The notes below the pieces were generated by a model, which was not told where the DNA came from, made no database searches, and saw only the letters and a list, made by a program, of their open reading frames with translations. DNA of 53,030 bases from a virus. Below, piece by piece: positions 2,382 to 20,381 of the stretch. The translations under genes and the position numbers were made by a program. Where the stretch lies: positions 1 through 53,030 of the IMG/VR virus record IMGVR_UViG_3300012971_000007; one strand, given 5' to 3'. Position 1 is the stretch's first letter. Every line of letters begins with the position of its first letter.

Positions 2382-2410
2382 GTGCAGGGTAGGGCTGACG
2401 CATTGGCGTG
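2382..2410 (+). promoter_or_regulatory. Late intergenic cassette copy 1: GTGCAGGGTA-N8-GCATTGGCGTG
   Basis: It starts 3 nt after the terL stop. Its terminal GTG (2408) is the start codon of the next ORF. Confidence 0.6.
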
Positions 2411-2689
2411 CAGCTACCCAAGGCCGAAGACCTGCGGGCGATCTTCGCGGCGGCCCGTGAAAACGGCGTTGTACGCCTGAAGATCGGCAACATCGAGGTT
2501 GACCTGGCGCCGATGGGCCTGGTCGACGCGATCGATGAGGCACACCCGCTGCCGGAAGACCCGATCGCCATCGTGCGCGGCACCGTGCGCCCGAAGGGCA
2601 CCGCCGAGCTGCCCGACATCCTGGAGGCGATGTCCGAAGGGAAACGCATCGTCGACACGGTCACGCCCGACCCAACCGCCCCGCAGTGA
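2408..2689 (+). CDS. Hypothetical protein (93 aa)
   Basis: The ORF starts at the GTG of the cassette. Codon third positions are GC-rich like the neighbouring genes. Confidence 0.6.
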   Translation: MQLPKAEDLRAIFAAARENGVVRLKIGNIEVDLAPMGLVDAIDEAHPLPEDPIAIVRGTVRPKGTAELPDILEAMSEGKRIVDTVTPDPTAPQ

Positions 2690-2705
2690 CGAAGGAGCGA
2701 CGCGA

Positions 2706-3338
2706 ATGATCCAGGCAGTTGACGGTGTACTCGGGAATCGGTGGCCCCGCGTCTTCTGCCGTGCGTACCAGGAGACGTCGGCTATTGCGCCGGCCGCGAA
2801 CGCCAACCTGGCAGCGTTCCGCTGGACCGATCTCAGGGTTCTGTGCGTGCCGCTGCGCGTTTGGATCAACGTCAACGTTGCCACCGCGGTCACTGCGCAG
2901 CGTACGGACCCGCTGCGACTCTTCATCGCCCGAGCGTATACGGCGCGCGACGCCACGAACGCCACCGCCGTCACGATCAGTGCGGGAATGCAGAAGTTGC
3001 GCAGCGACGCACCCTTCGACTCGCTATTGGTTGGCAGCGCAAGCGGAAACTTCGACGTTGCCAACGCCGCCGCCGGTTTGACTGGCGGCACGAAGACGGT
3101 CGACAGCACCGCGATCGGTTCCAAGGCGTTCGGCGTCGAAGTTCTGGCCGGTCTCGGCACTGGCATGGAGGGGGATATCTGGGTGGGAGCGCCTCAGGGC
3201 TCGATGCCGCCGCAATTCAGGGCGCAGGCCATCGGCGGCGGCGAGGGTTTGCTGGTTCAATGGGGCGCGACGGCCCTGGCGACCGGTACGGTCACGGTAG
3301 GCGTCGGCATCGAGTGGGCAGAGCTGACGAACGCCTAG
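2706..3338 (+). CDS. Hypothetical structural-module protein (210 aa)
   Basis: ATG 2706 is preceded by gaaggag. It is in frame with track ORF 2499-3338. The protein is Ala/Gly/Thr-rich and looks beta-rich. Confidence 0.65.
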   Translation: MIQAVDGVLGNRWPRVFCRAYQETSAIAPAANANLAAFRWTDLRVLCVPLRVWINVNVATAVTAQRTDPLRLFIARAYTARDATNATAVTISAGMQKLRSDAPFDSLLVGSASGNFDVANAAAGLTGGTKTVDSTAIGSKAFGVEVLAGLGTGMEGDIWVGAPQGSMPPQFRAQAIGGGEGLLVQWGATALATGTVTVGVGIEWAELTNA

Positions 3339-3345
3339 GAGGCCG

Positions 3346-5289
3346 ATGGCGTTCGAGCTGCAAACCGGGCGCTGGTGGGACGCCAACGAGAACGACGTCG
3401 CATCAACGCTCGCCGGCTGGGCCACGCACCTGGAGTCGTTTGACTTCGAGCGGCGCTCCAAAAACCTGATCTACGCCCGCCTGGCCACTAATCGCGACCT
3501 GCCGAACATCTACGGGCTGGCGCTCACTCGGACCAACATGCGGGCGCTCGACTTCCGCGACTGGAAGGCCCCCGTCTTCAACGTCACGGGGAGCAGCATC
3601 GAGACACTGGTCAACAAGGTCGGGCGAAACAAGCCCTGGATCCTGTTCCTGACCGACGGTGGCGACTTCTCGGCGCGCATGGCCGGTAAGCGACGGAGCC
3701 GGTTCGTTGACGGCGTGTTCCATGAGACGCAGACCTACAAGCTCACGCGCCAGATGTTCCAGGACGCGCTCACATATGGTGACGGGTTCATCAAGGCGAC
3801 GAAGTCCATGGACGGAAAGAGCATCGTCCACGACGTTGTACTGGCCGACGAACTGTTGGTTGATCCGTGGGACTCGCTCTACTTCGGCAAGTGGCCACGC
3901 TCGTTGATCCATCGAACGTTCGTCAACCGAACCGAGCTGCTCTCGATCTACGGCGACGACGAAGAGATCCGCTTCGCGATCGAAACGGCGCCCGGATCGT
4001 TCCAGGGCCCGATGTGGGGCGGCATGTCGTCGAACGCGCAGTCGGCAATGGTGGCGGTGCTGGAGGGCTGGAAGCTGCCCGATCCGGACGGCACGCCAGG
4101 GCGACACGTCCTGTGCATCAGCGATCGCGGCGTCCTGGTGGACGAGCCGTACAAGCGGAAGAAGTACCCGTTTGTCAAAATGTCCTGTGTCTCTGCGGGG
4201 CGCGGGTTCTGGAACATCGGCGTGCCGGAAATCCTCGGCCCCTTCCAGGCCAACATCAACCGCACGCAGCAGGTCATCGACGAGTGCCAGCGTCGGATGT
4301 CGACCGGTCGCTGGCTGGTGCCGACCGGCAGCGGTGTGACCGACGACGCGCTGGCGTCGAAGGCCGCCGGCATCATTCGCCACGCACCCAATCAGCCGCC
4401 GCAGTTCATCACGCCGCAGGCTGTCCCGGCTGATCTGTACGCCCACCTCGACAAGACGATCGAGCGCGCCTACAAGCGGGTTGGGATCTCCGAGTTGGCC
4501 GCGCAGGCGATGAAGCCAGCGGGCCTGAACAGCGGCGAAGCGCTGCGCGCATTCGAGAGCGCCGAGAGCGAGCGCTATGTGACACTGGGGATGCAGCTTG
4601 AGGAAGCGGTGGTCGACCTGGCCGAGCTGGATCTGGAGTTGGCCGAAGAGATCAGGCCGACGGTGCGCGCCCCGCGGTCGGGCGGGATCGACGTCATTGA
4701 TTGGTCGGAGCTGGAGAAGCTGAAGGACAGCAGCGCCGTCATGAAGGCCTTCCCGATCTCGTCGCTGCCGACGAGCCCCGCCGGACGTCTCCAGCGGGCC
4801 GCCGAGATGTTCCAGATCGGTCAGATCACGAAGGAAGATTACCTGCGGATCATCGACTACCCCGACACGCAGGCGGTGATCGATCTCAACATCGCCTCGC
4901 GCGACTCGATCGATTGGATGCTGGACCGGATCGTTGAGAGCGGCGTGCCGGAGATGCCCGAACCGTACCAGCCGCTCGACGTGGCAATCACGGTCGCGCA
5001 GAACCGTTACCTGCGCGAACGGACGCTTGGCTGTCCCGAGGAACGGCTGGAGCTGCTGCGCCGGTTCATGGACACGGCCAAGACACTCCAGCAGAAGATC
5101 GCCAGCGGCCAGACCACACCGGGCGCGCCACAGACCCCGCCGGCCGCAAATCCCGCGTCAGGCATGCCCAGCCCGCCCGGCGGCCTGCCGCCGCCTGTGC
5201 CGCCCGTCATCGGACAGGGCGCGGCTGGCGGTGGTCCGCCGAACCTGGGTCCAGTTCCGTCACAGCAACCGCTGCCGCAAGCAGCCTGA
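3346..5289 (+). CDS. Portal protein (putative)
   Basis: 647 aa, the first large gene after terL, with aggagg before the ATG. The C-terminal tail is Pro/Gly-rich. The call rests on size and position. Confidence 0.7.
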   Translation: MAFELQTGRWWDANENDVASTLAGWATHLESFDFERRSKNLIYARLATNRDLPNIYGLALTRTNMRALDFRDWKAPVFNVTGSSIETLVNKVGRNKPWILFLTDGGDFSARMAGKRRSRFVDGVFHETQTYKLTRQMFQDALTYGDGFIKATKSMDGKSIVHDVVLADELLVDPWDSLYFGKWPRSLIHRTFVNRTELLSIYGDDEEIRFAIETAPGSFQGPMWGGMSSNAQSAMVAVLEGWKLPDPDGTPGRHVLCISDRGVLVDEPYKRKKYPFVKMSCVSAGRGFWNIGVPEILGPFQANINRTQQVIDECQRRMSTGRWLVPTGSGVTDDALASKAAGIIRHAPNQPPQFITPQAVPADLYAHLDKTIERAYKRVGISELAAQAMKPAGLNSGEALRAFESAESERYVTLGMQLEEAVVDLAELDLELAEEIRPTVRAPRSGGIDVIDWSELEKLKDSSAVMKAFPISSLPTSPAGRLQRAAEMFQIGQITKEDYLRIIDYPDTQAVIDLNIASRDSIDWMLDRIVESGVPEMPEPYQPLDVAITVAQNRYLRERTLGCPEERLELLRRFMDTAKTLQQKIASGQTTPGAPQTPPAANPASGMPSPPGGLPPPVPPVIGQGAAGGGPPNLGPVPSQQPLPQAA

Positions 5290-5305
5290 AACAAGGAGAA
5301 CGAAC

Positions 5306-5482
5306 ATGGCCGAGAAAGAAACGAAAGTCCCCAATGGAAACGCCGCAGGCGCGGCGCTGAACGCCAGCGTGGTCAAGTCGACCGAAGAGGCGACGACCCG
5401 CGCGTACGAGCGCGCGTTCAACGCCACCGACACATCGGCGCCCCCGCCCTCCGCTGCGCCGGAGCCCACGGGGACGAAGTAG
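5306..5482 (+). CDS. Small protein (58 aa), paralog of 5486-5797
   Basis: aaggag lies before the ATG. The C-terminus RAYERAFNATDTSAPPPSAAPEPTGT matches the next gene. Confidence 0.6.
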   Translation: MAEKETKVPNGNAAGAALNASVVKSTEEATTRAYERAFNATDTSAPPPSAAPEPTGTK

Positions 5483-5485
5483 GTC

Positions 5486-5797: not shown

Positions 5798-5800
5798 GCG

Positions 5801-5971
5801 ATGGATCCGGAATTGGAAGCACGAATCGTCAGAGCGCTACGGCAGGCGGCGCGGGACGCCAGGTCATCCGACAGCCAGGCAGAAGCCGAAGCGCTGATCG
5901 AAATCCTGACCATCCCGGAACCGCCGCCGCCCCCGCCAGAAGCCCCGGTCGCACCGGAGCCAGCACCGTGA
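5801..5971 (+). CDS. Hypothetical small protein (56 aa, poly-Pro tail)
   Basis: ATG at 5801; the stop TGA overlaps the next GTG (GTGA). It is below the ORF-track size cutoff. Confidence 0.45.
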   Translation: MDPELEARIVRALRQAARDARSSDSQAEAEALIEILTIPEPPPPPPEAPVAPEPAP

Positions 5972-6147
5972 AACCGAAGCTGGGCAGCGGTGCCAGGTTC
6001 GCGTCCCTTGAGCACAAGTTCGAGGGACGCGGCGACATCAAGAACCCGGGCGCCCTGGCGGCGTCGATCGGGCGCAAGAAGTACGGCGCGAAGAAGTTCA
6101 GCGCGCTATCACACAAACGCCCACGTCTGAAAGAATACGTGCGCTAA
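5968..6147 (+). CDS. Small basic protein (59 aa), ends KRPRLKEYVR
   Basis: GTGA overlap upstream and TAATG overlap downstream. The motif GSGARFASLE...NPGALAASIGRKKYG resembles small proteins recalled from other phage head modules (memory only). Confidence 0.55.
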   Translation: MKPKLGSGARFASLEHKFEGRGDIKNPGALAASIGRKKYGAKKFSALSHKRPRLKEYVR

Positions 6148-6317
6148 TGCCCTACGCTAGCCGGGCACAGCAACGGTTCTTTCACGCCGCCGAGGCACGG
6201 GGCGAGATGCCAGCCAGCACGGTGAAGGAGTACGACAAGGCCACCGACTTCAAGGGCCTGCCGGCCCGCGTCGGCAAGAAAAAGCGTCGCCCCCGTCTGG
6301 CTGAATACGTCAAATAA
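6147..6317 (+). CDS. Small basic protein (56 aa), DUF3008-like, ends RRPRLAEYVK
   Basis: Contains SRAQQRFFHAAEARGEMP...KGLPARVGKKK. The C-terminal motif is shared with the previous gene. Confidence 0.55.
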   Translation: MPYASRAQQRFFHAAEARGEMPASTVKEYDKATDFKGLPARVGKKKRRPRLAEYVK

Positions 6318-6324
6318 CCTGGCC

Positions 6325-6353
6325 GTGCAGGGTACGCCTCTCGCATTGGCGTG
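6325..6353 (+). promoter_or_regulatory. Late intergenic cassette copy 2
   Basis: GTGCAGGGTA-cgcctctc-GCATTGGCGTG. The terminal GTG (6351) is the scaffold gene start. Confidence 0.6.
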
Positions 6354-7487
6354 GGAGACACCCAAGGAGACGCGCCAGCAGCCGCTACCACCGGCAGCGG
6401 CGAAGGGACACCCGATAGCGGCACGCCGCCGGCAGGCGACGCGCCCGACACGCAGGGAGGCGCGGCGCCAGGCGGGACTCATAATCCCGCAGACACGGGT
6501 TCGACTCCCGCCCCTGCTACCGAAGGCGGCGACAAGCCGCCGGAGACCAGCACCAAGGGCAAGGCGGGCAAGGCGAAGCCGGCCGAGCCGTCGGCCAGAT
6601 CTGGCCCAGATCTGACCCGCCGACTGGCGGACATGTCGAGAGACAACCGGGAACACCGGAAGGCGCTCGCGGATACGACCAGGGAGCTTGAATCCGCTCA
6701 TCAGCGGTTGGCGGACTTCGACGGTCTGATCAAACGCTCCCAGGCGGGCGACGGCGCGGCGATCGAGGAGATCTACAACCGGTTCGGCCTGTCGTTCGAG
6801 AAGATCGTCGACTACCACGCCGGCAAGCCGGATCCGACGCCCGAGCAGGCCCGCGATGCGGAAGTCGCCGCCCTGCGGGCCGAGCTGAAGGCTGACAAGG
6901 AAGCCCGCCAGCAGGAGCAGCAGCAAGCCCAGCAGGCGATGGCACAACAGCGCGAAGCCGCCGCCCGCGCGGAGTATGTAGGTATGTGCGGCCAACACAT
7001 CAAGGCCGCGGGGGACCAGGCCGAAATCTGCGGGCGTCTTGGCGACGAAGCCGCGGAGGCGGTCTTCGGCAAGGTGATCAAGGCGTGGGGTGATGCCGGC
7101 CGTCCCGAGCTGATGCCGGGCGAGCTGGAAGAGGCGATCGACAAGGCGATCGAGGTGCAGGAGCTGGAGTACGAGAAGCGCGGACAGCTTCTCGTGAAAA
7201 AGCTCAACGGCACGAATGGCACCAACGGTCACGCCAACGGCGCCGCGAAAACTTCTGATCTTCCAGCCGGCTTGACCGGCGGGAAATTGAGCGACACGGA
7301 CGAAACCATCCTGAACGGGCTCATAGACAAGTCGGCCCCCGGGGAGAAATCGCAACGCGCGAAGCCCCGGTCAATCAGCAGCCAGATGGGGGGCTCGGCG
7401 CCGCCGAAGACCGCCCCACGCGGAGGCATGGACGCCCGCGAGGCCCTACGGGCCACCCTCGCGGACTTCAACCTCACCCCGCGCTGA
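6351..7487 (+). CDS. Scaffolding protein (putative)
   Basis: 378 aa with a low-complexity N-terminus and charged, helical repeats of the QQEQQQAQQAMAQQREAAARAEY type. It lies immediately upstream of the capsid gene. Confidence 0.65.
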   Translation: MGDTQGDAPAAATTGSGEGTPDSGTPPAGDAPDTQGGAAPGGTHNPADTGSTPAPATEGGDKPPETSTKGKAGKAKPAEPSARSGPDLTRRLADMSRDNREHRKALADTTRELESAHQRLADFDGLIKRSQAGDGAAIEEIYNRFGLSFEKIVDYHAGKPDPTPEQARDAEVAALRAELKADKEARQQEQQQAQQAMAQQREAAARAEYVGMCGQHIKAAGDQAEICGRLGDEAAEAVFGKVIKAWGDAGRPELMPGELEEAIDKAIEVQELEYEKRGQLLVKKLNGTNGTNGHANGAAKTSDLPAGLTGGKLSDTDETILNGLIDKSAPGEKSQRAKPRSISSQMGGSAPPKTAPRGGMDAREALRATLADFNLTPR

Positions 7488-7527
7488 CGCTGATCATCTT
7501 CGAGCCGGCCCGTAAGGAAGGTCCGCA

Positions 7528-8763
7528 ATGATTGCGGATATCGTTGCAGCAGTCGAACCAATCTACAAGCAGTGGTACTCGTCCAGCTACGAGAACATGT
7601 TCTATCGCGACCGCCCCGCGATGGGCATGATCGCCAAGGAACGGGCAGGCGGCGAGCAGGTCAAGCAGCCGATCAAGATCGCGCAGGGTCCGGGGCAGTC
7701 GGCCACCTTCACCAATGCGCAGGGCAACGTCGGTCTGTCGACCCGTCGGCCCTTCCTGGGTGACTGGGGTCTCGACTATTCGCTGGCCCGCGTCTCCAAC
7801 ACGCTGATCGAGCTGTCGGAGAACAACAAGGGGGCGATCGTCAAAGCACTGGCGGACGAGACCGAATCGGCCGTCGATGCTCTGGCGCAGCGCTTCGAGC
7901 ACGACATGTTCCGGTCGGGATACGGAGACTGCGGTGTGCTGGCTTCCACGCCGGGCAGCACCACGGTCACGCTGACCCTCCGGGCGGACGCGCAGAACTT
8001 CTTCGTGGGCCAGGTGCTGGTCGCAGCCGCGACCGTCAACTCGTCCGTGCTGCGCAATGCGGGTGCTACGGCGCTCGTGTCGGGCGTCGACCGCGACGCT
8101 GGCACCGTCCTGAGCGCGTCCAACTGGACGGCCCAGATCGCGGCCCTCGTTGGCGGTGACGTTCTGTTCCAGCAGGGCGACCGTCAGAACAGCGCGACCC
8201 CCACGCCCCTCAAGGTCGTGGGATTCGCGGGATGGCTGCCGCTGTCGGCTCCGGTCGGCGGTGACAACTTCTTCGGCGTCGATCGCTCGATCGATCCGAC
8301 GTCGCTGGCGGGTGTCCGCAACTCGGGCATCGGCAAGCCGGTCAGCCAGGCGATCTACGACCTGGCGGTGCGCATCGGAGAGAACGGCGGCGCTCCTGAC
8401 GTCTGCTTCCTGTCGTTCGACACGTTCGGGAAGCTGGCCGTGGAGTTGGACAACCGGGCGATCTACGAAAACATCCAGGGCGCTGGGATCACGATCCTCT
8501 ACGAGGCGCTGACGGTGGCTGGGCCGAAGGGACGCATCAAGGTGTTCCCGTCGACCTACTGCCCGATGGATCGCCTCTTCGTGATCACGAAGCGCGACTG
8601 GACGATCTACTGCGGCGGGGGCGCGAACCCGATGTTCCCGTCGCTGAAGGGCGTCTCGCTGCTCGACGTGTCCAACGCCGATCAGGTCGAGGTGCGGCAC
8701 AAGACGCTGGCGCAGCTCATGTGCGCGGCACCGGGCCACTCCGGAGTGGCGCAGCTCCAGTAG
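7528..8763 (+). CDS. Major capsid protein (putative)
   Basis: 411 aa, following the scaffold gene, with aaggaagg before the ATG. A strong hairpin lies just downstream. Confidence 0.75.
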   Translation: MIADIVAAVEPIYKQWYSSSYENMFYRDRPAMGMIAKERAGGEQVKQPIKIAQGPGQSATFTNAQGNVGLSTRRPFLGDWGLDYSLARVSNTLIELSENNKGAIVKALADETESAVDALAQRFEHDMFRSGYGDCGVLASTPGSTTVTLTLRADAQNFFVGQVLVAAATVNSSVLRNAGATALVSGVDRDAGTVLSASNWTAQIAALVGGDVLFQQGDRQNSATPTPLKVVGFAGWLPLSAPVGGDNFFGVDRSIDPTSLAGVRNSGIGKPVSQAIYDLAVRIGENGGAPDVCFLSFDTFGKLAVELDNRAIYENIQGAGITILYEALTVAGPKGRIKVFPSTYCPMDRLFVITKRDWTIYCGGGANPMFPSLKGVSLLDVSNADQVEVRHKTLAQLMCAAPGHSGVAQLQ

Positions 8764-8776
8764 TCGGTGACGTGAC

Positions 8777-8807
8777 GCTCGGAGCGTAGCTGTACCGCGC
8801 TCCGGGC
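8777..8807 (+). terminator. GC-rich hairpin after the capsid gene (attenuator or terminator candidate, no U-tract)
   Basis: gctcggagcg (8777-8786) pairs with cgctccgggc (8798-8807); 10 bp including one T-G pair. Confidence 0.35.
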
Positions 8808-8850
8808 GTTGCGACCCCCCGGCACAACATACGGGAAGGAATCAACGACA

Positions 8851-10305: not shown

Positions 10306-13300
10306 TGGCGCCCGGCCTGCCCCGCCGGACGGTCCCGATCCTGCTGCGGGGCCTGGACCAAAAAGAGCCGAAGCAGACGGGCATCATGGGCGCCGTCGAG
10401 GTGCTCCAAAACATGGTGCTGATGAAGTCGGCCGAGGGCGGCTACGAGTTCGTGCCGCGCCCCGGCACCACCAATTTGTCAAAGACGGCAGATGTGGGTA
10501 GCATTACGTCCGGGATGCGGCTCGGGACGCTTGGCGCTGGCCTGGTATTGCTGACGGGGGCGTCCTGTTACCGGAAGGCCACCGACGAATGGCACCAGGT
10601 GTCGGCGACCGCGCCGACGGTCGGCGTAGACCAGCGAGCTATCACCCTCGGCTCAGCAACCGTCATCAGCTCGGACAGCGTCTATCTGAACGGGTACACG
10701 GTCTCGGCCTACATCACGGCTGACAATCTCAACGGGCAACAAGAGATCCGCTATTCGATCGTGGACGTCAACGGCGTGGCGGTGGTTGCCAACGCGCTGC
10801 TCGGTCAGACCCTGACCACACAGAGCTATCGTCGGGTGAAGATTCAAACTGCGGGTACCCGCTTCGTCATCAGCTACTTCTCGACGCTGTCCGTGATCAT
10901 CACGGCGCTGATCGGCGACACGGCCACGCCTACCGTTGTGCCTACCAACGTTACGGTGGCGAATAGCGCGATGGAGATCTACGACGCCCAGACGGTCGGC
11001 AGCAGCGGCAAGGTGGCATACGTCTGGCGGGACAGCGGTACCAATCAGCTAAAGCAGGTGCTGCTGACGCTGTCGTCCGGAACCCTGAGCGGCGTAACGA
11101 CCTATGCCGGGCTCACCAGCCTCGACGAGATCGGCTACCTGACCAACACGTACGCCGCGAACACGATCTATCTCGCGCACGTCGATATCACTAACGGCAT
11201 GCGCGTCTCGACGTTCGACGGGACATCGTTGGCGCTCGGATCTACGACTGTCTTTGATGCTGCCGTCACCAGCGTCTATAACATCGGCGGCTACCGGTCA
11301 GGAACGACGACCACGGTCCATTTCACGTTGGCAGGGGCCAACCCGTGGGATCGCGTGATCCGTGTGAACACGGGCGGTGCATCATCGGATGTCATTCGCT
11401 CTCTGACGCTCGCCTCGCGGGTGGTCTCATTCGGCGGCAACCTGTACGCACTGGCGCGCTGGGCAGGGCCGATTGGAACCGCCAGCAACTTCCTGCTCGA
11501 TCTCACCAACAACCTGACAGTCGGGCAGGCGACGCCCCTACAGGCGATCGATGCGCCCCTGGCTGGCTTTGCCGATCAGATGCCGAACCTGGCACCGGCC
11601 GCAGCGTCCAACGTCTTGCTGACGGCGGCCCAGAAGATCGTCGCGGTCCAATCGGGCGGCGGCTCGGCAGTCACCGACGTCGGCGCCGTCACGGTTTCAT
11701 TCACGATGCAGGATCCAACAGTCGGGAAATCCGTCGAGCTGAATGGGCTACTGCACATCCCAGGCTCTCAGCCGTACGTCTACGATGGCTCGGCGCTTGT
11801 CGAGCACGGATTTGTACAGACGCCGACATTCTTCGGAATGGCACTAGCAGGTGGCGGCGGCCTGACAGCCGGAGCGACGTACAGCTATCGGATCACGTAC
11901 GAATGGACCGACGCCGCCGGGAACGTTTGGCGGTCGGATCGGAGCGGCATTCAGACGACAACGCTCAGCGCGGCTCAAACGCAGGTTACGCTGACGCTGC
12001 CGACCCTGCGGGTTACAAGAAAGACCAACGTCTCGATTGGTGTGTACCGAACGCTCGCCAATGGCGACGGGTCGGTGTTCTTCAAGGTGTCGAGCGCGAC
12101 GCAGCCGATCCTGAACAAAACCACCATCGACGCTGTGACATTCGTCGATCAGGTATCTGACCAGGCAGCGGCCTCGGGCGAGCCGCTCTATTCTCCGAAC
12201 GACAACGCCGGATCGGTCCTGCCGAACATCGCGCCGCCGCCGTGCCGGGTGATGGCGGTCCATCGCGGACGGCTGCTGATCGGCGCCGTCGCAGGCGATG
12301 TTGATGCGGTCTGGTTCTCGAAGGACGTCTCGCCTGGTTTCGGTGTCGAATTCTCCGATGCACTGGTCTCGCGGATCACTAGCGTCGAGCCGATCACGGC
12401 TGTCGGGTCGATGGACTCCTATGCTGTGGCATGCACGGCGACGCAGAGCTGGGGCAGCATCAACGAATACCCAGACGACACTGGCGCTGGCGGCGTTCTC
12501 GTTTTTCAGCAGCAAAGCGACACGAACGGCTGCGCCACGATCGGGCTGCTCGGCAAGAATGATCTCGGTTTCATGACATGGGGCGGGAAGGCTACGAGTG
12601 GCGCGGCGACGACGCCGGCCAAGGGATTCTGGCGCAGCTCGCGCGGGCTATCTTGGGATTATGTTGGGAGCGGTGTCGAAGACGATGTGCTGCAATTCCA
12701 GTTCGATCCGGTAGCTGTCGTATCGGTGAAGGGCCAGAACCAGATGCGCTTCGTCGGCAATGGCAACATCCTCGGCCGGATGGTCTTCGTCTACGAAACC
12801 CTGTACGGGACGTGGGCGAATTGGTACTACAGCCAGGCCCCGGCTGCATTCGTCGATGCCGTGCTCTGGAATGGCACCATGGCGTATCTCTGCGCCGATG
12901 GAACGGTGCTGACGGAAGACGTGACGACCTATGACGACGTCAGCGTGCGCGTCCCGCATGTCTGCACGCTGTCCGGTCTGAACCTCTACGGCGTGGCCGG
13001 CTTCGGGCGTCTCTACATCACGCAGCTTACCGGCCGATGCGTCGGCGGCGGGAACGGGTTCATCCTGCGGGCCGACCAGTCATTCGACGGTGTGGCGATC
13101 GCGACCAAGTCAATGGTCTATGGCGGTTCAGAGACCGAGCTTGCTTTCGAAGTCGATCCGGGAACCATGGGGAAGTCATCCAGGTACGACCTGTCGATCT
13201 CCGACACGGCCAACGGTGCCAATTCGGCCTGGACCCTGACCGCGGTTACAGCCCTGATCGGCATGAAATCCGGCCTTTCCAAGCTGCCGCCGGCTCGCCG

Positions 13301-13310
13301 GGCTACCTGA
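10305..13310 (+). CDS. Large tail structural protein (nozzle / tubular B-like, putative)
   Basis: 1001 aa from ATG 10305 (track ORF starts at 10233). Ser/Thr/Gly/Val-rich, beta-type composition. Confidence 0.7.
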   Translation: MAPGLPRRTVPILLRGLDQKEPKQTGIMGAVEVLQNMVLMKSAEGGYEFVPRPGTTNLSKTADVGSITSGMRLGTLGAGLVLLTGASCYRKATDEWHQVSATAPTVGVDQRAITLGSATVISSDSVYLNGYTVSAYITADNLNGQQEIRYSIVDVNGVAVVANALLGQTLTTQSYRRVKIQTAGTRFVISYFSTLSVIITALIGDTATPTVVPTNVTVANSAMEIYDAQTVGSSGKVAYVWRDSGTNQLKQVLLTLSSGTLSGVTTYAGLTSLDEIGYLTNTYAANTIYLAHVDITNGMRVSTFDGTSLALGSTTVFDAAVTSVYNIGGYRSGTTTTVHFTLAGANPWDRVIRVNTGGASSDVIRSLTLASRVVSFGGNLYALARWAGPIGTASNFLLDLTNNLTVGQATPLQAIDAPLAGFADQMPNLAPAAASNVLLTAAQKIVAVQSGGGSAVTDVGAVTVSFTMQDPTVGKSVELNGLLHIPGSQPYVYDGSALVEHGFVQTPTFFGMALAGGGGLTAGATYSYRITYEWTDAAGNVWRSDRSGIQTTTLSAAQTQVTLTLPTLRVTRKTNVSIGVYRTLANGDGSVFFKVSSATQPILNKTTIDAVTFVDQVSDQAAASGEPLYSPNDNAGSVLPNIAPPPCRVMAVHRGRLLIGAVAGDVDAVWFSKDVSPGFGVEFSDALVSRITSVEPITAVGSMDSYAVACTATQSWGSINEYPDDTGAGGVLVFQQQSDTNGCATIGLLGKNDLGFMTWGGKATSGAATTPAKGFWRSSRGLSWDYVGSGVEDDVLQFQFDPVAVVSVKGQNQMRFVGNGNILGRMVFVYETLYGTWANWYYSQAPAAFVDAVLWNGTMAYLCADGTVLTEDVTTYDDVSVRVPHVCTLSGLNLYGVAGFGRLYITQLTGRCVGGGNGFILRADQSFDGVAIATKSMVYGGSETELAFEVDPGTMGKSSRYDLSISDTANGANSAWTLTAVTALIGMKSGLSKLPPARRAT

Positions 13311-13738: not shown

Positions 13739-13767
13739 GTGCAGGGTACGCACGCCGCATTGGCGTG
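13739..13767 (+). promoter_or_regulatory. Late intergenic cassette copy 3
   Basis: GTGCAGGGTA-cgcacgcc-GCATTGGCGTG. The terminal GTG (13765) is the start of the next gene. Confidence 0.6.
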
Positions 13768-15462
13768 AGCACGCCTTCGCTGTCGGACATCCTTGGCAGT
13801 TGGGGCGCAGAGGCCCAGCAGGGCTATGATGCCCTCGGGAACTACGCCAGCCAGGCCTGGAACAACATCAAACCGCCAAGCACGGCGGGACTCGACCAGG
13901 CCGCCGCTGACTCGCGATCGCTGGAACAGATGTTTCTCCAGCAGATGCAGAACCAGCCATACGCGCCCGTTCCTGGGATCTCATACGCCGGATCAGCGCC
14001 GGTCGTGAACCCGGACGGAAGTGTGACGCCCGGCGCAGGTGCCCCGGGGGCGTACGGCGGCGGTCCTAGCACCGGCCCGGCCCCTGGCACCGCGCGGACC
14101 AGATCGACGCCGGGGGCGATCACGGGGACGCCAGCAACACAAGGTCGGACGCCCGGCCTCGGGACCGCGCAACCGGGACAGGCATGGACCGGAACGCCGC
14201 AGACCCCGCCGCCCGGCGGCGATCAGTACCTCCAAGGACCGCCTGCTGATCCGAATGCACCTGGATCAGCGCTTCCCGGCCCCGGCAATCCTCACGGGGG
14301 TGGTGCTGCATCACCGAGCCCCGGGGGTGGCGGCTTCTATGGCAGCATGATGAATACGGCGGTCGGTTCTCCCGGTCGTCCTCCGACGCCGGTTGGAACG
14401 ACTCCCGCGTCCGCCTCGGGGGGTTACGGAGGATTTGGTACTGGCGGTCAGACTGGTTCGCCTCCCCCGCAGGGATGGACCGCCGGGGGGCCCGGCGGTG
14501 CGAATACGACCTACGTCGCGCCTGGGCCACCTCCCGCGGCGCCTGGAATGATGGCGGCGTCCATGGGGAAGGGCGCGACGATCGACCAGTCGCAGGAGGC
14601 GCAATTCCGCGCCGGCCAGATGGGACTGGCGGCGAACCTCGCGGGCGTGCTGTCCGGTCAGGCTCCTTCTGTCGCGCAGCTACAGCAGCAGCAGGCATTC
14701 GGCCAGCAGGAGGCGCAGCAGCAGGGGCTGGCTGCGGCGATGGGACGCGGCGGGAATACCGCGCTGGCGTTGCGGACTGCTGCCGGAAACATGGGCCAGC
14801 TCGGCGCGCAACAGGCTGCTGCGTCTGCGATCCTGCGTGCCCAGGAACAGGCGACGGCCCGCGGACAGATGGGCGAGGTGCTCAACTCGGGGCGGGCCCA
14901 GGATATCGGTCTTGCCGGGCAACAGGCCGGGCTGCAACAGCAGGCGTCACAGACGAATGCGCAATTGCTCCAGCAGGCGAACGCCAACAATCAGGCGTCC
15001 CAAATCCAGACGCGCGGCCAGAACATCCAGAACACCGCCGAACAACAGCGGGCGATCCTCCAGGCCAATCAGAACCAAGCGCAGGCGTATGGGACCGCCT
15101 ACAACGCCCAGAGCAACCGCGCCCAACAGTACGGCAACCTGTACAGCCAGGGACTATCAGCCGCCGCCCTGCTCTCTGACAAGCGACAGAAGGAGAAGAT
15201 CTCGGCGACCGAGGCGCCCGAGTTCGACGAGTTCCTGTCGAAGATCGCGCCGAAGTCCTTCAGCTATAAAGGCGACCAGCAGCGCCACGTCGGCGTCATG
15301 GCCCAGGACGTGGAGAAGTCGAAGATCGGATCGACGATGGTGAAGAACACGCCCGTGGGGAAGATGATCGACGTTCCCCAGGCGACGGGTGGAATGATGG
15401 CGGCCCTCGCAGACATGCACAAGCGCGTCTCGAAGCTCGAAGGCCGAAAGAAGGCAGCGTGA
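13765..15462 (+). CDS. Low-complexity fibre-like protein with a C-terminal Peptidase_S74 intramolecular-chaperone domain
   Basis: The C-terminus LLSDKRQKEKI...SFSYKGDQQRHVGVMAQDVEKS...MMAALADMHKRVSKLE fits the S74 pattern (SDxRxK, GxxAQ, final helix). The N-terminal 460 aa are Pro/Gly-rich and then Gln/Ala-rich. Confidence 0.8.
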   Translation: MSTPSLSDILGSWGAEAQQGYDALGNYASQAWNNIKPPSTAGLDQAAADSRSLEQMFLQQMQNQPYAPVPGISYAGSAPVVNPDGSVTPGAGAPGAYGGGPSTGPAPGTARTRSTPGAITGTPATQGRTPGLGTAQPGQAWTGTPQTPPPGGDQYLQGPPADPNAPGSALPGPGNPHGGGAASPSPGGGGFYGSMMNTAVGSPGRPPTPVGTTPASASGGYGGFGTGGQTGSPPPQGWTAGGPGGANTTYVAPGPPPAAPGMMAASMGKGATIDQSQEAQFRAGQMGLAANLAGVLSGQAPSVAQLQQQQAFGQQEAQQQGLAAAMGRGGNTALALRTAAGNMGQLGAQQAAASAILRAQEQATARGQMGEVLNSGRAQDIGLAGQQAGLQQQASQTNAQLLQQANANNQASQIQTRGQNIQNTAEQQRAILQANQNQAQAYGTAYNAQSNRAQQYGNLYSQGLSAAALLSDKRQKEKISATEAPEFDEFLSKIAPKSFSYKGDQQRHVGVMAQDVEKSKIGSTMVKNTPVGKMIDVPQATGGMMAALADMHKRVSKLEGRKKAA

Positions 15463-17391
15463 GTGCCGAACCTCGCACGCAAAGTCGATGACGATCCGGA
15501 TGCGCTGATTCTTCCGGAAGAAGAGGAACGGCCCGAGGCAGAGACCCCCCCGCCGGAAGTCGACGCGGTCACGGGTGCCACGCCGCAAGACTCGACGCCG
15601 TACACGCCGCCGGCTGTTCCTGGAGGCGCGCTGACGCCCGAGCAGGAAGCGCGGGCGGCGACGACGCCGAACCCAAGTGACGATGCTGTCGACAAAGCCC
15701 TGACGGAAGCCGGCCAGCAGCCGCAGGCCATCCAGCAGCAGGAACAGAAGGGGATCGAAGAACAAGACAAACTGCTAGAACAGCAGATCGAGGCGAAAAA
15801 GCGAGCCGACGCCGCGCAGGCGAAGATCGATCAAGCCACCGCTGCGCAGGCCGAAGAACAGGCCCGCATCCAGCAAGCGCACGCGCAGCAACAGCAGCAG
15901 ATCTCGGATCAGGCCAACGCCCGCACGCAACAGTGGATGCAGCGACAGCAAGAAGAAATGGACAAGTACCAGTCCATGGGCCTGCACGACTTCATCGGCG
16001 AGATGCCGCTGCTCAACAAGGTCCTGGCAGGCCTATCCATGTTCACCGGGGCCGCTGGTGGCACGCCGCCCGATCGCAATCCTGGCGTCATCGCGATCCG
16101 GGACGCCGTCAACCGCGACTTCCAGCGGCAGCAGTTCGCGATCTCCAAGCAGAAGGAAATGGTCGGCATGGCCAAGGAGGGCGTCGAAACGTCGCTCTCC
16201 ATGAAGCAGCAAGACCTGGCCGACAACAATATGAAGAAGGCCGCCGCACTCGACGCCATCGCAGCGCAGGGCGTGGCGATGAAGCTGCGCAACGGTGTGC
16301 CGCTCAATGAGGCGAACAGCGATGCGGCGATCGTGGCGTTGCGCCAGGACGCCAATAAGACGCGCATGGAGACCCTGAAGCTGGTCCACGCGCAGAACGT
16401 TCAAGAAGCGATGTTCGCGCACAAGCTCGGATATGACGAGCAGATGCTGAAGCTGAACAAGCAGCGGGCAGACGCAGCAACGCTCTCGGCGCAGGCGCGA
16501 GTAAAACACCTAAAGGCTGGCGGCCAGGGCGGCGGCGGTGGAGGAGGCAAGGCCTGGGATGCGATGCAAGGAGCCGCGGAAGCTACTGGCGCGAATCTGG
16601 CGTCAGTCGTTCGCGCCGGTCTCGACAACGGCATGTCAAGGAAGGAGGCGGCCAAGCAGGGGAAGATCATCTGGGACGAATACCAAAAAGGCGGTGGAGC
16701 AAAGAAAAAGGCCGACGCCGCAGAGATCAAAGAGGTGGCCGGGGAATTCCAGAAGGACGAAGCGCGCCTGAATGGTTCTGGCCGTACCCAGGGCCTGGTC
16801 GCGCGCCAACAGGACATCCGTGGCCTGGGCGACATGATCCGCGCCGCCTCGGCGAGCGGCGACCCCAAGCAGCTTGTCGGCGCAGTTGTCGCTGCCCGAG
16901 AGAAGATCGCGCGGCTGAACACCGGGGCAGCTCCTAGCCACGAACAGATGCAACTGCTCAAGGACATGAGCGGCAATCCGGCGCAGTTCGAGGAGAAGAT
17001 CTCTCGCTTGTTCGGCAACCCGAAGACGGCGAAGCAATCGGCAGATGTCTTGCTGTCGCTCATCGATCAGTCAGACGAACACGCGATGAAGCAGATCGAT
17101 ACCGAACGTGAGCGCCTGAAGGTGAAATACGGCCCGAACGGCATCGGACGGACAGAAGCACAGCGACGCTACGCGAACGGTCGCATCGCCGGCTTGACAT
17201 CGGGGGTCAAGGTGCGAACGGATACCGGGGAGATCCCGCGTTACAACGAAGTCGCGCCGCCTCCACCGGAGGCCGGAAATGACAAAGCCGCCAAGGCACA
17301 GGCTATCGTTTCCGATCCAGCGAACAAAAAGAAGTACGGCTACAACGATCAGCAGTGGGCCAGGTTGCAGCAGATTGCGGACGGTAAATGA
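15463..17391 (+). CDS. Internal virion / ejection-type protein (putative), coiled-coil rich
   Basis: 642 aa with a GTG start abutting the upstream TGA. It has long Q/A/K/E heptad-like stretches and a GGGGGGG run. Confidence 0.7.
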   Translation: MPNLARKVDDDPDALILPEEEERPEAETPPPEVDAVTGATPQDSTPYTPPAVPGGALTPEQEARAATTPNPSDDAVDKALTEAGQQPQAIQQQEQKGIEEQDKLLEQQIEAKKRADAAQAKIDQATAAQAEEQARIQQAHAQQQQQISDQANARTQQWMQRQQEEMDKYQSMGLHDFIGEMPLLNKVLAGLSMFTGAAGGTPPDRNPGVIAIRDAVNRDFQRQQFAISKQKEMVGMAKEGVETSLSMKQQDLADNNMKKAAALDAIAAQGVAMKLRNGVPLNEANSDAAIVALRQDANKTRMETLKLVHAQNVQEAMFAHKLGYDEQMLKLNKQRADAATLSAQARVKHLKAGGQGGGGGGGKAWDAMQGAAEATGANLASVVRAGLDNGMSRKEAAKQGKIIWDEYQKGGGAKKKADAAEIKEVAGEFQKDEARLNGSGRTQGLVARQQDIRGLGDMIRAASASGDPKQLVGAVVAAREKIARLNTGAAPSHEQMQLLKDMSGNPAQFEEKISRLFGNPKTAKQSADVLLSLIDQSDEHAMKQIDTERERLKVKYGPNGIGRTEAQRRYANGRIAGLTSGVKVRTDTGEIPRYNEVAPPPPEAGNDKAAKAQAIVSDPANKKKYGYNDQQWARLQQIADGK

Positions 17392-19505
17392 CCGACGAAG
17401 AACTGTTGGCGAAGGGTGGCCAGGGACCTGATGCCGACGACGAAGAACTGCTGAACCGAAAACCGGGTTCGGACGCCCGTGGTCACGCCTACGATCCGCG
17501 CTTCGCTCCGACGCCCGAGGACGACCAAGAAGAACTGGCCCCTTCATCGAAGGCGGTGCTCTCGCGCGCCTTTACGCCGCAGAGTTACCAGGACGTTCAA
17601 GAAAGCCTGAAGCCGCCACAGCGACAGAAGCCGGCAGTCACCGAAGGTGGGCCAGCGCCGACCAGGGCGCAAGCATTCGTGCGGGGGCGTCTCCAGGGAA
17701 GCACGTTCGGCTTCGGCGATGAGCTGGCCGCCGCGATCGATGCGGGAGTCTCGCACGTCCCGGGTGTTAGATCCTTCGCTCAGATGTTCCAGGATTCCAG
17801 TCTACCGCCACTCACGAATTCCGATGTCAGCTACCAGGAGCGTCGCGATGCGTATCGCGCCAAGAACAAGGCCGCCGAGGAAGCGCACAAAGGATTCTAT
17901 ACGGCTGGCCAGATGGAAGGCGGCCTGGAGACCGCAAAGTTCATGCCGAGCATTGGGACCGGTATTCCTGGCGCAATCAAGACGGGCGGTCTTGCTGGCG
18001 CGCTGACCGGGCTCGGGGAATCTGAAGCCGAACTGTCGGGGACCAAGCCGTTGGGACCGGAATTGAAGCAAGCGGCATACGACACGGCGAAGTCCGGGAT
18101 CGCGGGCGGCATCGTCTCGGGCGTGCTGGCGAAGGGACTGGATGTCCTGTCGAAGCACGCCGTCAAGAACGCGCACGGCTGGGTCGCCAACGACGTGGCG
18201 GGGGATGTGCCGTCCGCCTCGACGCCCACGGCGCGCAAGCAGATGGCGGATGACGCGGTCAATGTTGCCAAGGTGGTGCGCAGCGACAAGCCACTGGATG
18301 ACGCGATCAACGCCGCCAGGGCCAACAACGCCGACGATATCAAGGCCGCGCAGGGCGTGGTCGCCGATCGCCTGAAATCTACCGGGGACAAACTGTCGCC
18401 TGGCTGGAAACAGGTCGACAAGTCTCTGCCGCAGCCGCTGACATCCGGGCGAGTAGTCGATCACCTGAACGAGCATGCCGGCGCCCTGGAAGCGACTGGC
18501 AACCGAACCGACAAGGTGGAAGCGGCGGCGGTGCGGCAGATCGCCGACGACGTCAAAACGGCGAAGGACTGGGGGGCGGCGAAGCAGACGTTCAATCCGA
18601 AACAGCCCGTCAGCAATGGAACATTCGCAGGGATGGAAACCGAGAAGGCGATCAAGGCCCTGGAGAAGATGAAGGACGTCGCGGAACAGACTGTCGATGC
18701 GCTGGAACCATGGAACGCCAAGGAAGGTGCACGGGGGCTGCCGGCAGAAGAACGCGCTGTGCGGCGCGCGGCTGCCGTTGCGCGAGTGGACGCGCTCGGC
18801 TCCGAGATCGACCGGCTGACGAAGGAAGCCACTAGCAGCGCATTCGACCCGGACCACGTTGTCTCAGTTGAACAACTGCAAAAGCTCTGGTCGGACCATG
18901 CCGGCATCGCCTATCAATCGCAGGGCGGGATCAATGGCACGGCGACGTTCAATCGACGGCTGGACGTGGCTTCTCACCTGCGCGATCTGCGCGATGAGAT
19001 CATGGGGGAAGCGGCGCAGACGAATCCGGCGGCGGTGGCACATATGCAGGTGAACCTGGCTAGGTACAGCGCGCTGAAGCGAATCGAACAGGTATTGGAT
19101 CAGCGAGCTAATGCAGCGAAGCGGGCCGGCAATCCAATGGTGCCGCAGTGGCTGTCTCATCTCGGACAGCACACCAGGGCGATTGGCGCGGGCGGCCTGA
19201 CCGCCTCGGCATATGCTGCCGCGCAGGGACACTACAAGACGGCGGCGCTACTCGCCGCACCGGCCGTCTATACCATGGGGCGCAGGGCAGTTGATCGTGG
19301 GATGGCCAATCTGATCGAGGCCGCGCCGGAATCAGCACAGGCGCGGGTGATTCTGCAACTGATCCAACAGGGCATCCCGAAGGCAGCGGCGATTCAGGCG
19401 GCGCGCAGCGTCGCGCCCGGCGGCATGCTGAGCCCAGTGATTGACCAGACCGTCGAGGGTGCGACGACCGCGGCAAAGTCTATCGTCGGCGGTGGCGAGC
19501 AGTGA
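17388..19505 (+). CDS. Internal virion / ejection-type protein (putative)
   Basis: 705 aa with an ATGA overlap. It carries Gly-zipper hydrophobic segments (GIPGAIKTGGLAGALTGLG, GIAGGIVSGVLAKG). Confidence 0.7.
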   Translation: MTDEELLAKGGQGPDADDEELLNRKPGSDARGHAYDPRFAPTPEDDQEELAPSSKAVLSRAFTPQSYQDVQESLKPPQRQKPAVTEGGPAPTRAQAFVRGRLQGSTFGFGDELAAAIDAGVSHVPGVRSFAQMFQDSSLPPLTNSDVSYQERRDAYRAKNKAAEEAHKGFYTAGQMEGGLETAKFMPSIGTGIPGAIKTGGLAGALTGLGESEAELSGTKPLGPELKQAAYDTAKSGIAGGIVSGVLAKGLDVLSKHAVKNAHGWVANDVAGDVPSASTPTARKQMADDAVNVAKVVRSDKPLDDAINAARANNADDIKAAQGVVADRLKSTGDKLSPGWKQVDKSLPQPLTSGRVVDHLNEHAGALEATGNRTDKVEAAAVRQIADDVKTAKDWGAAKQTFNPKQPVSNGTFAGMETEKAIKALEKMKDVAEQTVDALEPWNAKEGARGLPAEERAVRRAAAVARVDALGSEIDRLTKEATSSAFDPDHVVSVEQLQKLWSDHAGIAYQSQGGINGTATFNRRLDVASHLRDLRDEIMGEAAQTNPAAVAHMQVNLARYSALKRIEQVLDQRANAAKRAGNPMVPQWLSHLGQHTRAIGAGGLTASAYAAAQGHYKTAALLAAPAVYTMGRRAVDRGMANLIEAAPESAQARVILQLIQQGIPKAAAIQAARSVAPGGMLSPVIDQTVEGATTAAKSIVGGGEQ

Positions 19506-20344
19506 CGGGCGCGATCTCCCCCGAGGCGTTGCTAGGCGCGACCGGCATCGAAGGAATCCTTTCCGGCGATCCCGCCAAGATCACGGTCGGCGACAAGTCG
19601 AAGGCCGAAATGATGGCACGGGAGATTCGACGATCTCTCGTCCGCTTCATGACGGACCTGGACGATCTGAGGCCGATCCCAAAGATGAAGAAGTTCGATT
19701 ATGAAAAGGCGCTCAACCAAATCACCGATGCCGTGGTACCGGCAGACGGATCTGGGGCGCCGACCGTCAAGCCGGCCTTGATGGAGAAGATCGCCGGCTG
19801 CTTCCGTCCCGAAGATCACGATCTGGCCGCAGGCTACATGTCAAATGTCCAGCGTGTGCTACCGCACCTCCAGACCTTACTGCCCATCAACGTCGTGGTG
19901 ACGTCCGCGAAGCGAGTTAATTACGACCCGAGCGACTCGGAGATCTCTCACTTCCGGCGCGCCTATGACGTGGCGAATGATCCCATGGTCGTCTGCCGAG
20001 ACATGGAGCTGGGGATTCTCGTCGCGGATCAGTTGCTGCACCTCCAGGCGTGCTACCCACATGTCTACGAGAATCTCCAGCGCCAGCTCGGGGCGGCCGA
20101 AGTCGACGCTATCGCGCGCAAGAAGTCTTGGAAGCTTCCCTGGCGGCAGGAACGGATCGTCCAGATGGTCCTTGGGACCGACACCCTGAGCGAAGCGCTT
20201 GCCGTGGACCTGCAACGCAGCTTCATCGCCCAGGATCAGGCGAAGCCAGGACCGGCTCAGCCATCCGCCAGCGGTATCAGCAAGATCGCCACCATGGTAC
20301 AGCCCCAGACCCAGGCCGTCGCAGATGGCGATCTGCGCAAATAG
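19502..20344 (+). CDS. Hypothetical virion-module protein (280 aa)
   Basis: Track ORF with a GTGA overlap to the upstream gene. Confidence 0.7.
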   Translation: MTGAISPEALLGATGIEGILSGDPAKITVGDKSKAEMMAREIRRSLVRFMTDLDDLRPIPKMKKFDYEKALNQITDAVVPADGSGAPTVKPALMEKIAGCFRPEDHDLAAGYMSNVQRVLPHLQTLLPINVVVTSAKRVNYDPSDSEISHFRRAYDVANDPMVVCRDMELGILVADQLLHLQACYPHVYENLQRQLGAAEVDAIARKKSWKLPWRQERIVQMVLGTDTLSEALAVDLQRSFIAQDQAKPGPAQPSASGISKIATMVQPQTQAVADGDLRK

Positions 20345-20352
20345 GGTCAATT

Positions 20353-20381
20353 GTGCAGGGTACGGGCGGCGCATTGGCGTG
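20353..20381 (+). promoter_or_regulatory. Late intergenic cassette copy 4
   Basis: GTGCAGGGTA-cgggcggc-GCATTGGCGTG. Here the terminal GTG (20379) is out of frame with the tailspike ORF. Confidence 0.6.

Follow-up and report, generated by a model that had tools for sequence, protein, structure and literature searches.

A repeated bipartite cassette at late-gene start codons of an uncultured phage clade and its possible role in late transcription

The window analysed here, 53,030 nucleotides of an uncultured phage (positions 1 to 53,030 of IMG/VR virus record IMGVR_UViG_3300012971_000007), carries four copies of a 29-bp cassette, GTGCAGGGTA-N8-GCATTGGCGTG, three of which end in the GTG that, judging from protein conservation, starts the next gene. 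The starts that abut the cassette lack a Shine–Dalgarno (SD) sequence, and related phages carry an element of different sequence at the same junctions, where it stays with the downstream gene even if the gene upstream has been inverted. From these comparisons we tentatively favour reading the cassette as a late transcription-start element specific to the phage, in other words all or the core of an internal late promoter.

The cassette and its counterparts in related phages

An exhaustive search of both strands returned exactly four matches to the pattern in the window, all on the plus strand and with 0 mismatches; these are precisely the positions, identical arms and constant 8-nt spacer given in a preliminary description of the sequence. 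J1 (2382..2410, GTGCAGGGTAGGGCTGACGCATTGGCGTG) lies between terL and a 93-aa gene, J2 (6325..6353) between the gene for a small basic protein and the scaffold-position gene, J3 (13739..13767) between a lipoprotein gene and an S74 fibre gene, and J4 (20353..20381) between the gene for a 280-aa protein and the tailspike gene. All four copies sit in late (virion-gene) intergenic gaps. No fifth copy was found on either strand of the window when up to 3 mismatches were allowed, and 100 dinucleotide-preserving shuffles contained 0 matches, with 0 expected by chance. The left arm alone does not recur in the window at up to 1 mismatch, and the right arm alone gave only chance-level matches with 1–2 mismatches. 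When the four copies were aligned together with their 40-nt flanks, conservation was confined to a 29-bp block with abrupt borders on both sides; two spacer positions were also invariant, which refines the motif to GTGCAGGGTA-N-G-N5-C-GCATTGGCGTG. The cassettes begin 3, 8, 7 and 9 nt (J1–J4) past the upstream stop codon, in line with the 3–9 nt first reported, and together with the start codon they occupy gaps of 28, 33, 32 and 42 nt.

At J1, J2 and J3, the terminal GTG is the earliest possible start of the downstream open reading frame (ORF; 2408–2689, 6351–7487 and 13765–15462, respectively). Proteins of the related phages introduced below are conserved right up to the GTG position, with ATG or GTG at the same place. 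The N terminus of the 93-aa protein, M-x-L-P-(K/S)-(A/V)-(E/D)-(D/E)-L, is kept in relatives L001, L002, L003, L021 and L022, and the scaffold-position N terminus, MGD..., is common to L001 and L003, with an ATG at the same place in other relatives. Gene calling on L013, an ENA metagenome contig that is 99.99% identical to the window, also puts the scaffold-position start at the J2 GTG. This protein conservation identifies the terminal GTG as the true start in three of the four copies. The J4 GTG (20379) is not in the tailspike frame, for which GTG 20387 and TTG 20351 are the in-frame candidates; the tailspike probably starts at GTG 20387, 6 nt past the cassette, with TTG 20351 as the alternative. 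We also noted that the J4 GTG opens an 11-codon ORF (20379–20414) overlapping the probable tailspike start, which could be a short upstream ORF if transcripts begin at 20379.

None of the four window copies has an SD-like tetramer at −16 to −4, and most other window genes have a GGAG-, GGAA- or GAGG-type SD at normal spacing. Across the clade, the start codons at these sites all begin with a purine (ATG or GTG). The proposal that an SD has no space beside the cassette, which itself supplies the start codon, is therefore borne out for three copies and fails at J4, where the GTG is out of frame.

The genes served are all on the plus strand. J1 serves the 93-aa gene (2408..2689), which has homologues in five relatives, and J2 a 378-aa scaffold-position gene (6351..7487), both without an SD; the major capsid-position gene that comes after the latter (7528..8763) has one. 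J3 serves the gene for a 565-aa fibre protein with a C-terminal S74 chaperone domain (13765..15462), again without an SD, and J4 the tailspike gene with its pectate-lyase-like domain and uncertain start (20387..23566). The gene identities first assigned were roughly right: TerL matches phrog_2 and the S74 domain lies in 13765–15462, while 'scaffold' is a name from position only.

SD-less starts of this kind are missed by gene callers. The fibre protein is called as 299 aa instead of 565 in L013 (16205–17036), with the first 266 codons lost, and the scaffold gene of the L001 phage (protein P0002) as 282 aa instead of about 378 by JGI. In practical terms, the cassette flags true SD-less start codons that gene callers overlook.

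Capsid and scaffold protein searches yielded nine uncultured relatives of the window phage (L001, L002, L003/L004, L005, L007, L021, L022, L023 and L024). Every relative that covers the junctions has a repeated element between terL and the 93-aa gene, before the scaffold-position gene and before the fibre gene, always on the coding strand. Its sequence differs from phage to phage and its position is conserved. L001, the closest relative (81% DNA identity), has GTGCAGGGTA-N5-GCC-ACC(C/T)TGGCGTG; the L004 phage has (G)TTCTGAGGG-N4-CGGGGCG-N-GGTTGTG; L007 has ACCGGGCACAAATCCCGG(T/C); L021–L023 have GGGTGCGC-N3/4-GCAC or GCGCA..., then ATG; and L002 and L024 have (C/T)(G/A)GGT(A/G)CG.... The only features common to all are a core, RGGT(A/G)CG, with its GG 19–24 nt before the ATG or GTG, and the missing SD at abutting starts.

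The left arm and the final 7 bases in L001 are the same as in the window, and the right arm, with GCATT in the window and ACCCT in L001, is changed at 3 positions, the third in two of three copies. This concerted change without homogenisation of the spacers suggests selection by a specific reader, one that varies from phage to phage, and not gene conversion. The exact window cassette was not found elsewhere in IMG/VR, where a relaxed pattern of both outer blocks retrieved the L001 contig only. The preliminary description had held that related phages without the cassette at orthologous junctions would speak against it; the outcome was mixed, the position turning out to be kept and the exact sequence to be unique to the window phage. 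Its late-only placement, seen first in the window, is found again in two relatives: the complete genome of the L004 phage has the canonical element at three late junctions only, plus one degenerate fourth copy, and the covered part of the L001-phage contig upstream of terL has none.

Rearranged junctions separated the element from its upstream neighbours. In L021, L022 and L023, the fibre-gene element follows minus-strand genes and stands directly before the fibre ATG; the inserted minus-strand block upstream of the fibre gene includes Ro60/TROVE in L022 and L023, and the divergent gap before the fibre gene measures only 69–77 nt in L021 and L023. The 280-aa gene is inverted in the L004 phage, and the element's fourth copy follows it in the divergent gap. 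The minus-strand ORFs upstream of these elements have a coding-type GC3 of 0.75–0.90. In four relatives, then, the element keeps its place beside the gene downstream even where the gene upstream lies on the opposite strand.

Because the upstream genes run on the minus strand, a plus-strand transcript must begin within the divergent gaps, and a strict sigma70 scan of those of L021 and L023 found no promoter. For the same reason, no ribosome could be handed over from an upstream cistron in these four phages, and an element marking the 3′ end of an upstream message would make no sense. We therefore rejected termination–reinitiation and translational coupling. Among the three roles that had been proposed, a promoter of leaderless mRNAs is now the best supported and re-initiation is disfavoured.

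The presence of an SD tracks distance from the element: abutting starts lack one, and distant starts are preceded by an AAGG-type SD. At the post-capsid copies of L021–L023, the start lies about 10–12 nt beyond the predicted transcription start (given below) and has its own SD, as does the start 57 nt downstream of the J4 copy in the L004 phage.

The capsid gene is itself followed by one or two strong hairpins in the window (8764–8850) and in L005 (2483–2550), L021 (8198–8267), L022 (11059–11130) and L023 (3230–3304). Several relatives have a CCGCGC-TTCG-GCGCGG tetraloop stem there; next in the relatives comes a GGGTGCGCGGGC(A/G)C hairpin that shares the core of the junction elements, then a short T run and an SD.

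Possible modes of action

Invariant arms around a variable spacer of fixed length suggest a protein that reads the arms sequence-specifically. Under the transcription-start reading, a putative sequence-specific factor, either phage-encoded or a phage-modified host RNA polymerase, would read the two arms on double-stranded DNA across the spacer. Transcription would start at, or a few bases from, the purine that opens the start codon. The predicted start point lies about 21–22 nt past the first G of the core and coincides with the start codon in abutting copies. The correlation between SD and distance is what would be expected if transcripts begin there. The mRNAs of the 93-aa gene, the scaffold–capsid block and the fibre block would then be leaderless and need no SD, the tailspike mRNA would carry about 8 nt of leader, and the four copies would split the long one-directional late region into separately boosted units. 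The placement before the scaffold–capsid block, fibre and tailspike resembles that of internal late promoters in other phages. Phage-specific promoters typically show up as intergenic repeats that are well conserved and few in number (PMC4331800).

Several observations weigh against a promoter. Pfam, PHROGs and PDB-sequence scans of the window ORFs detected no gene for an RNA polymerase, a sigma factor or a sigma54 activator, in agreement with the earlier remark that the phage has no RNA polymerase gene. Counted from the start codon as +1, the conserved blocks, at −26 to −17 and −9 to +3, match the geometry of neither sigma54 nor the sigma70 family. E. coli translates leaderless GUG starts poorly, and the host here is probably Gram-negative. 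The inverted repeats or hairpins of L001, L007 and L021 J1 would also suit RNA structure or a dimeric operator. Moreover, no cassette precedes terS and terL, the first late genes, so the cassette is not the sole late promoter and another must open the late region.

Standard bacterial promoter classes fitted poorly. A sigma70 or extracytoplasmic function (ECF) sigma promoter was rejected: the arms are 8 nt apart, compared with the 16–18 nt required between −35 and −10, and no choice of −10, which should precede the transcription start by 5–9 nt, fits while keeping the start codon inside the transcript. With the start codon as +1, the −12 to −7 window falls in the variable spacer. A sigma70 consensus scan found nothing at the cassettes, and nothing is conserved upstream of the 29-bp block.

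A host sigma54 (RpoN) promoter with −24/−12 elements was attractive at first because GG (cassette positions 7–8)-N10-GC (19–20) is present in all four copies and because phage YuA offers a precedent, with three experimentally trapped −24/−12 promoters in its virion-gene region (PMC10914365; GenBank AM749441). The cassette had been described as fitting neither sigma70 nor sigma54 spacing; the first misfit stands, whereas the sigma54 spacing is formally there. However, the copies score 7, 9, 8 and 8 of 12 (J1–J4, J2 being best) against TGGCACG-N4-TTGCW, which is background level, as 33 other window sites score at least 9/12. Placing C20 at −12 would start the transcript about 3 nt past the GTG, without the proven starts of three genes. 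All three L001 copies have AC instead of GC at the −12 position, L022 and L007 lack the spacing, and the phage itself encodes no PF00158-type (Sigma54_activat) protein, although the host might supply an activator. We rejected this reading on the background score, the misplaced +1 and the lack of conservation in relatives; it is largely refuted by geometry and very improbable.

Folding of the window copies gave z-scores of −2.4, −0.3, −1.2 and −0.6, with minimum-energy folds that differ between copies, and thus no shared or significantly stable RNA fold among the four. Genuine hairpins or dyads exist in some relatives, namely L001 (CAGGGT/ACCCTG), L007 and L021 J1, and L021 J2 keeps the sequence motif with the hairpin absent. 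The L001 stem CAGGGU/ACCCUG survives in the window as C-G, A-U, G.U, GxA, G-C and U.G, and a conserved hairpin there was rejected; apparent covariation in the L004-phage stem was not counted, since its registers differ per copy. No Rfam 15 covariance model matched a region overlapping any copy at E-values up to 5, and an intrinsic terminator scan found nothing at the cassettes, none of which is followed by a T run. RNA structure is not the conserved feature of the elements.

These results bear on two readings at the RNA level. In the first, the cassette would be a translation operator, or start-associated sequence, on a polycistronic late mRNA, replacing the SD; the ribosome might be recruited or positioned by a phage protein, by an RNA or by pairing of a non-SD kind with rRNA, or the cassette might gate the translation of four dosage-critical genes. 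Its appeal is that three of the four cassettes, and most elements of the relatives, stand directly against the start codon in the place of the missing SD, and that in some relatives a hairpin lies between core and start. The core, RGGU(G/A), is also similar to the 3′ portion of an extended SD (AGGUGA) but lies about 20 nt upstream rather than 5–9, and a precedent exists in the start-associated sequences (SAS) and ESAS of Cluster K mycobacteriophages, whose sequence is subcluster-specific (PMC3203893, PMC12699233). By contrast, J4 in the window would put the ribosome on an out-of-frame GTG, and both the L004-phage J4 copy and the post-capsid copies of L021–L023 precede genes that have an SD of their own. 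The divergent gaps of 69–77 nt would in addition need a separate promoter upstream, of which none is recognisable, and the window copies have no common fold. We consider a translation operator rather unlikely.

In the second, an intercistronic hairpin, processing site or partial terminator would set segmental late mRNA levels, comparable to T7 RNase III sites or REP-type stabilisers. The copies in L001, L007, L021 J1 and the L004 phage can form stems of 5–8 bp, the post-capsid core copy of L021–L023, L005 and L009 is a hairpin followed mostly by a short T run, as in a weak terminator, and the elements begin just 3–9 nt past stop codons. RNase III, however, needs longer stems than 5–8 bp, the window copies show differing folds and no significant structure, L021 J2 has the motif without the hairpin, and neither a T tract nor a terminator call accompanies the cassettes. 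An element of this type would also not be expected to stay at the downstream start when the upstream gene is inverted, and we regard it as improbable.

A DNA site unrelated to expression, either a single-strand nick site of the phiKMV or T5 kind or a linker for modular recombination, would account for four one-strand copies with a bipartite consensus and for their position beside the exchangeable fibre and tailspike modules, as gene content past J3 and J4 varies strongly among relatives. Yet neither function would lead one to expect the (nearly) fixed spacing to the start codon throughout the clade or the correlation of SD with spacing, and linkers should be conserved between phages, whereas these elements are conserved within a phage and diverge between phages. 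Such a site is likewise very improbable.

Genome setting and a candidate reader

With a G+C content of 64% and a terminal 123-nt repeat (1–123 = 52908–53030), the window is a complete circular genome of 52,907 bp from an uncultured phage clade. The phage is present in ENA ERZ27264556 and ERZ27264337, and its relatives come from JGI soil samples. A 453-aa gene crosses the circle junction (about 52075 to 367) and was also called, at 1479–2840, in L013. Nearly all window genes are on the plus strand, including terL (751..2379), whose product gives the phrog_2 match, and an SU10-like portal gene (3346..5289). The remaining genome encodes an integrase, a Dam methylase, a PAPS reductase, ParB-like and AAA_24 proteins, a CHAP lysin and an HNH nuclease. 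Several proteins, including those encoded at 10233–13310, 15463–17391 and 17388–19505, lack any annotation; neither the 1025-aa protein among them nor the 453-aa protein had a PDB-sequence match, and a cryptic polymerase in either is conceivable. No DNA or protein match was found in 50,697 phage records other than a weak portal match to Pseudomonas phage BroderSalsa, and two scans of 185,579 species genomes revealed no prophage. Proline-rich lipoprotein ORFs near the lysis genes, judged by eye, suggest a Gram-negative host.

The one protein that we single out as a candidate trans-acting factor is encoded at 49446..49892 (plus strand), about 3.8 kb upstream of terL on the circle; it has 148 aa and a C-terminal helix-turn-helix (HTH). 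A search of about 5.8 billion non-redundant proteins placed it in a family of 4 members including the query's own cluster, and a profile search found 24 members in 1.84 billion representatives. The L001 phage, which is the only relative sharing the left arm of the cassette, encodes a syntenic homologue (59% identity) with an invariant HTH; the other two members lie on short contigs from which late regions were not recovered. The C terminus is weakly of the LuxR/NarL/GerE type (profile match to NarL, E=0.04). An AlphaFold2 model (pLDDT 80) showed no significant fold match and no sigma-like fold, and a role as a sigma factor was rejected, as the likeness to sigma regions 2 and 4 seen by eye was unsupported and no Pfam sigma match was found. 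Of the two HTH proteins named in the preliminary description, the 49446–49892 product is a real candidate for the reader, its putative link to the cassette being their joint occurrence in two phages.

The same protein, or another phage DNA-binding regulator, could use the cassette as an operator; bound at the four junctions, it would modulate how RNA polymerase passes or initiates, as a repressor or roadblock at a site that is not itself a promoter. The closest relative indeed has a bipartite site with dyad symmetry (CAGGGT-N9-ACCCTG), the core GGGTA/TACCC appears to resemble NarL/GerE-type half-sites, and the HTH family, invariant in its HTH and encoded syntenically just before the late region, is essentially confined to the window phage, the L001 phage and two short contigs. 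On the other side, the dyad is degenerate in the window (3/6 positions), half-site centres 15 bp apart would lie on opposite faces of the helix, and the link between protein and site is a co-occurrence in two phages from a search of limited sensitivity. An operator would also leave the missing SD unexplained. We judge this reading quite improbable.

A bolder form of the transcription-start reading, which we consider unlikely as a whole, would have a small phage DNA-binding factor direct the host RNA polymerase to a bipartite site at −26 to −1 that has neither sigma70 nor sigma54 geometry; this would be a hitherto undescribed promoter class, found in phages of a Gram-negative host. Transcripts would start exactly on the GTG or ATG, the late virion mRNAs would be leaderless and SD-independent, and site and factor would co-evolve, the factor possibly being of the 49446–49892 HTH family.

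If the cassette is a promoter, it would show how the virion genes of an uncultured and unannotated phage clade are timed and dosed although the phages have neither an RNA polymerase nor a sigma factor of their own. The cassette would, in addition, be a compact 29-bp element whose specificity shifts by just three base changes between sister phages, and hence a natural system for studying the co-evolution of a promoter and its reader.

Other features of these genomes came to light in the course of the analysis. Between the portal and scaffold-position genes (5801–6317), the window encodes two or three tandem small basic proteins of 56–59 aa, the last two of which end in KRPRL(K/A)EYV; this C-terminal motif also precedes the J2 element in L001, L003, L022, L023 and L024. 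ARAGORN called a tRNA-Met on the plus strand inside the scaffold-position gene (6451–6521), 100 nt past J2, which is probably spurious (Rfam tRNA score 26.2 bits against a threshold of 29). By eye, the divergent early control region (31455–31500) contains TTGACG-16 nt-TATACC-7 nt-ATG; this site would start a 63-aa gene (31498) leaderless, lacks the final T of the −10 and does not pass the scan criteria. The 9-mer CCGAGGTGC has six plus-strand copies compared with 1.3 expected (29690, 30009, 30305, 32487, 33515 and 47999), a number that no shuffle reached; three copies encode A-E-V in plus-strand genes and three are antisense to minus-strand genes at 29.4–31.5 kb. On the minus strand, 27294–27508 and 27818–27886 hold a tRNA-like sequence (tRNA-Sec model, 40.6 bits, below threshold), a weak match to YrlA (Y RNA-like; 27.6 bits) and a tRNA-Thr. 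The Ro60/TROVE proteins are encoded at 16309–17916 in L022 and 8649–10229 in L023, and tRNA T-arm motifs not called by ARAGORN adjoin the Ro60 gene in L022 (17917–18354). These may belong to a phage Ro60/Y-RNA module of which the window retains the RNA part only. In L024, the product of the terminase gene (1728–4232) has 834 aa and contains an intein (Intein_splicing, PT-HINT).

Comparison with known systems

The pattern is a clean one that holds across the clade, and analogous elements are already known. T7-type class III promoters are a few near-identical intergenic copies, all on one strand, before blocks of virion genes. The cassette shares this arrangement, as do the phiEco32/7-11 promoters, TAATGTATA (PMC4331800). 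Promoters read by phage sigma factors or polymerases are also phage-specific in sequence and change between relatives, and the window portal is distantly SU10/phiEco32-like. Unlike the window, these phages have a gene that can be recognised as that of a sigma factor or an RNA polymerase, and their promoters are contiguous stretches of 9–23 bp followed by a leader with an SD, whereas the cassette is bipartite, with an 8-nt free spacer, and ends in a start codon.

Pseudomonas phage YuA has the same G+C content of 64%, no RNA polymerase of its own and internal promoters in its structural region (PMC10914365; GenBank AM749441). A conserved non-bacterial motif stands at nine mapped transcription starts and is inactive without phage factors (PMC10914365). 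An annotated copy of the YuA repeat (CTTTACTTCTTCGGGTCCCGCCACTATA) differs from the cassette in ending in a −10-like ACTATA followed by a 21-nt leader. YuA and the window phage have no sequence or protein similarity, and the structural-region promoters of YuA are of the sigma54 type, which is unsupported here.

The cassette ends at the start codon, which makes the geometry of another well-known arrangement impossible. In the temperate phages P2 (Ogr) and Mu (C protein), the late genes form about four units, each with the same site read by a small phage DNA-binding protein. Both phages place that site at about −55 or −30 to −55, ahead of a sigma70 −10, and their late mRNAs have a leader and an SD.

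Leaderless mRNAs share with the abutting copies a start codon at the 5′ end and no need for an SD. Phage examples include lambda cI from PRM and many transcripts of actinobacteriophages and Thermus phages, and in the known cases an ordinary −10 hexamer lies about 7 nt upstream of the start codon; in the cassette, that location is the variable spacer. Phage transcripts are often leaderless (PMC5312081).

The SAS and ESAS of Cluster K mycobacteriophages are repeated, one-orientation, phage-group-specific sequences next to start codons (PMC3203893, PMC11373665, PMC12699233). ESAS, like the cassette, have two conserved arms, a variable spacer and a consensus specific to the subcluster, and in subcluster K4 the right repeat can overlap the start codon by one base, its last being the codon's first (PMC3203893, PMC11373665, PMC12699233). 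Their function is still unproven, and ESAS are now thought to contain promoters (same sources). The differences are plain: the SAS/ESAS consensus (GGGATAGGAGCCC) has no sequence similarity to the cassette, SAS include a canonical AGGAG SD, whereas the cassette lacks one, and the host type differs. SAS and ESAS occupy the non-structural early arm in 7–19 copies and gaps usually above 50 bp, compared with four late copies in gaps of 28–42 nt, and ESAS have SigA −35/−10 hexamers 17–18 bp apart, whereas no sigma70-type hexamer pair fits the cassette. Neither the promoters of phage sigma factors and polymerases nor the YuA motif nor the P2/Mu sites end in a start codon, and the cassette lies outside all of these families, SAS/ESAS included. 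SAS/ESAS are nevertheless the closest described phenomenon, and if the cassette acts on RNA instead, the phage clade would provide a second and independent example of such mycobacteriophage-type start-associated sequences, in late genes and probably in phages of a Gram-negative host.

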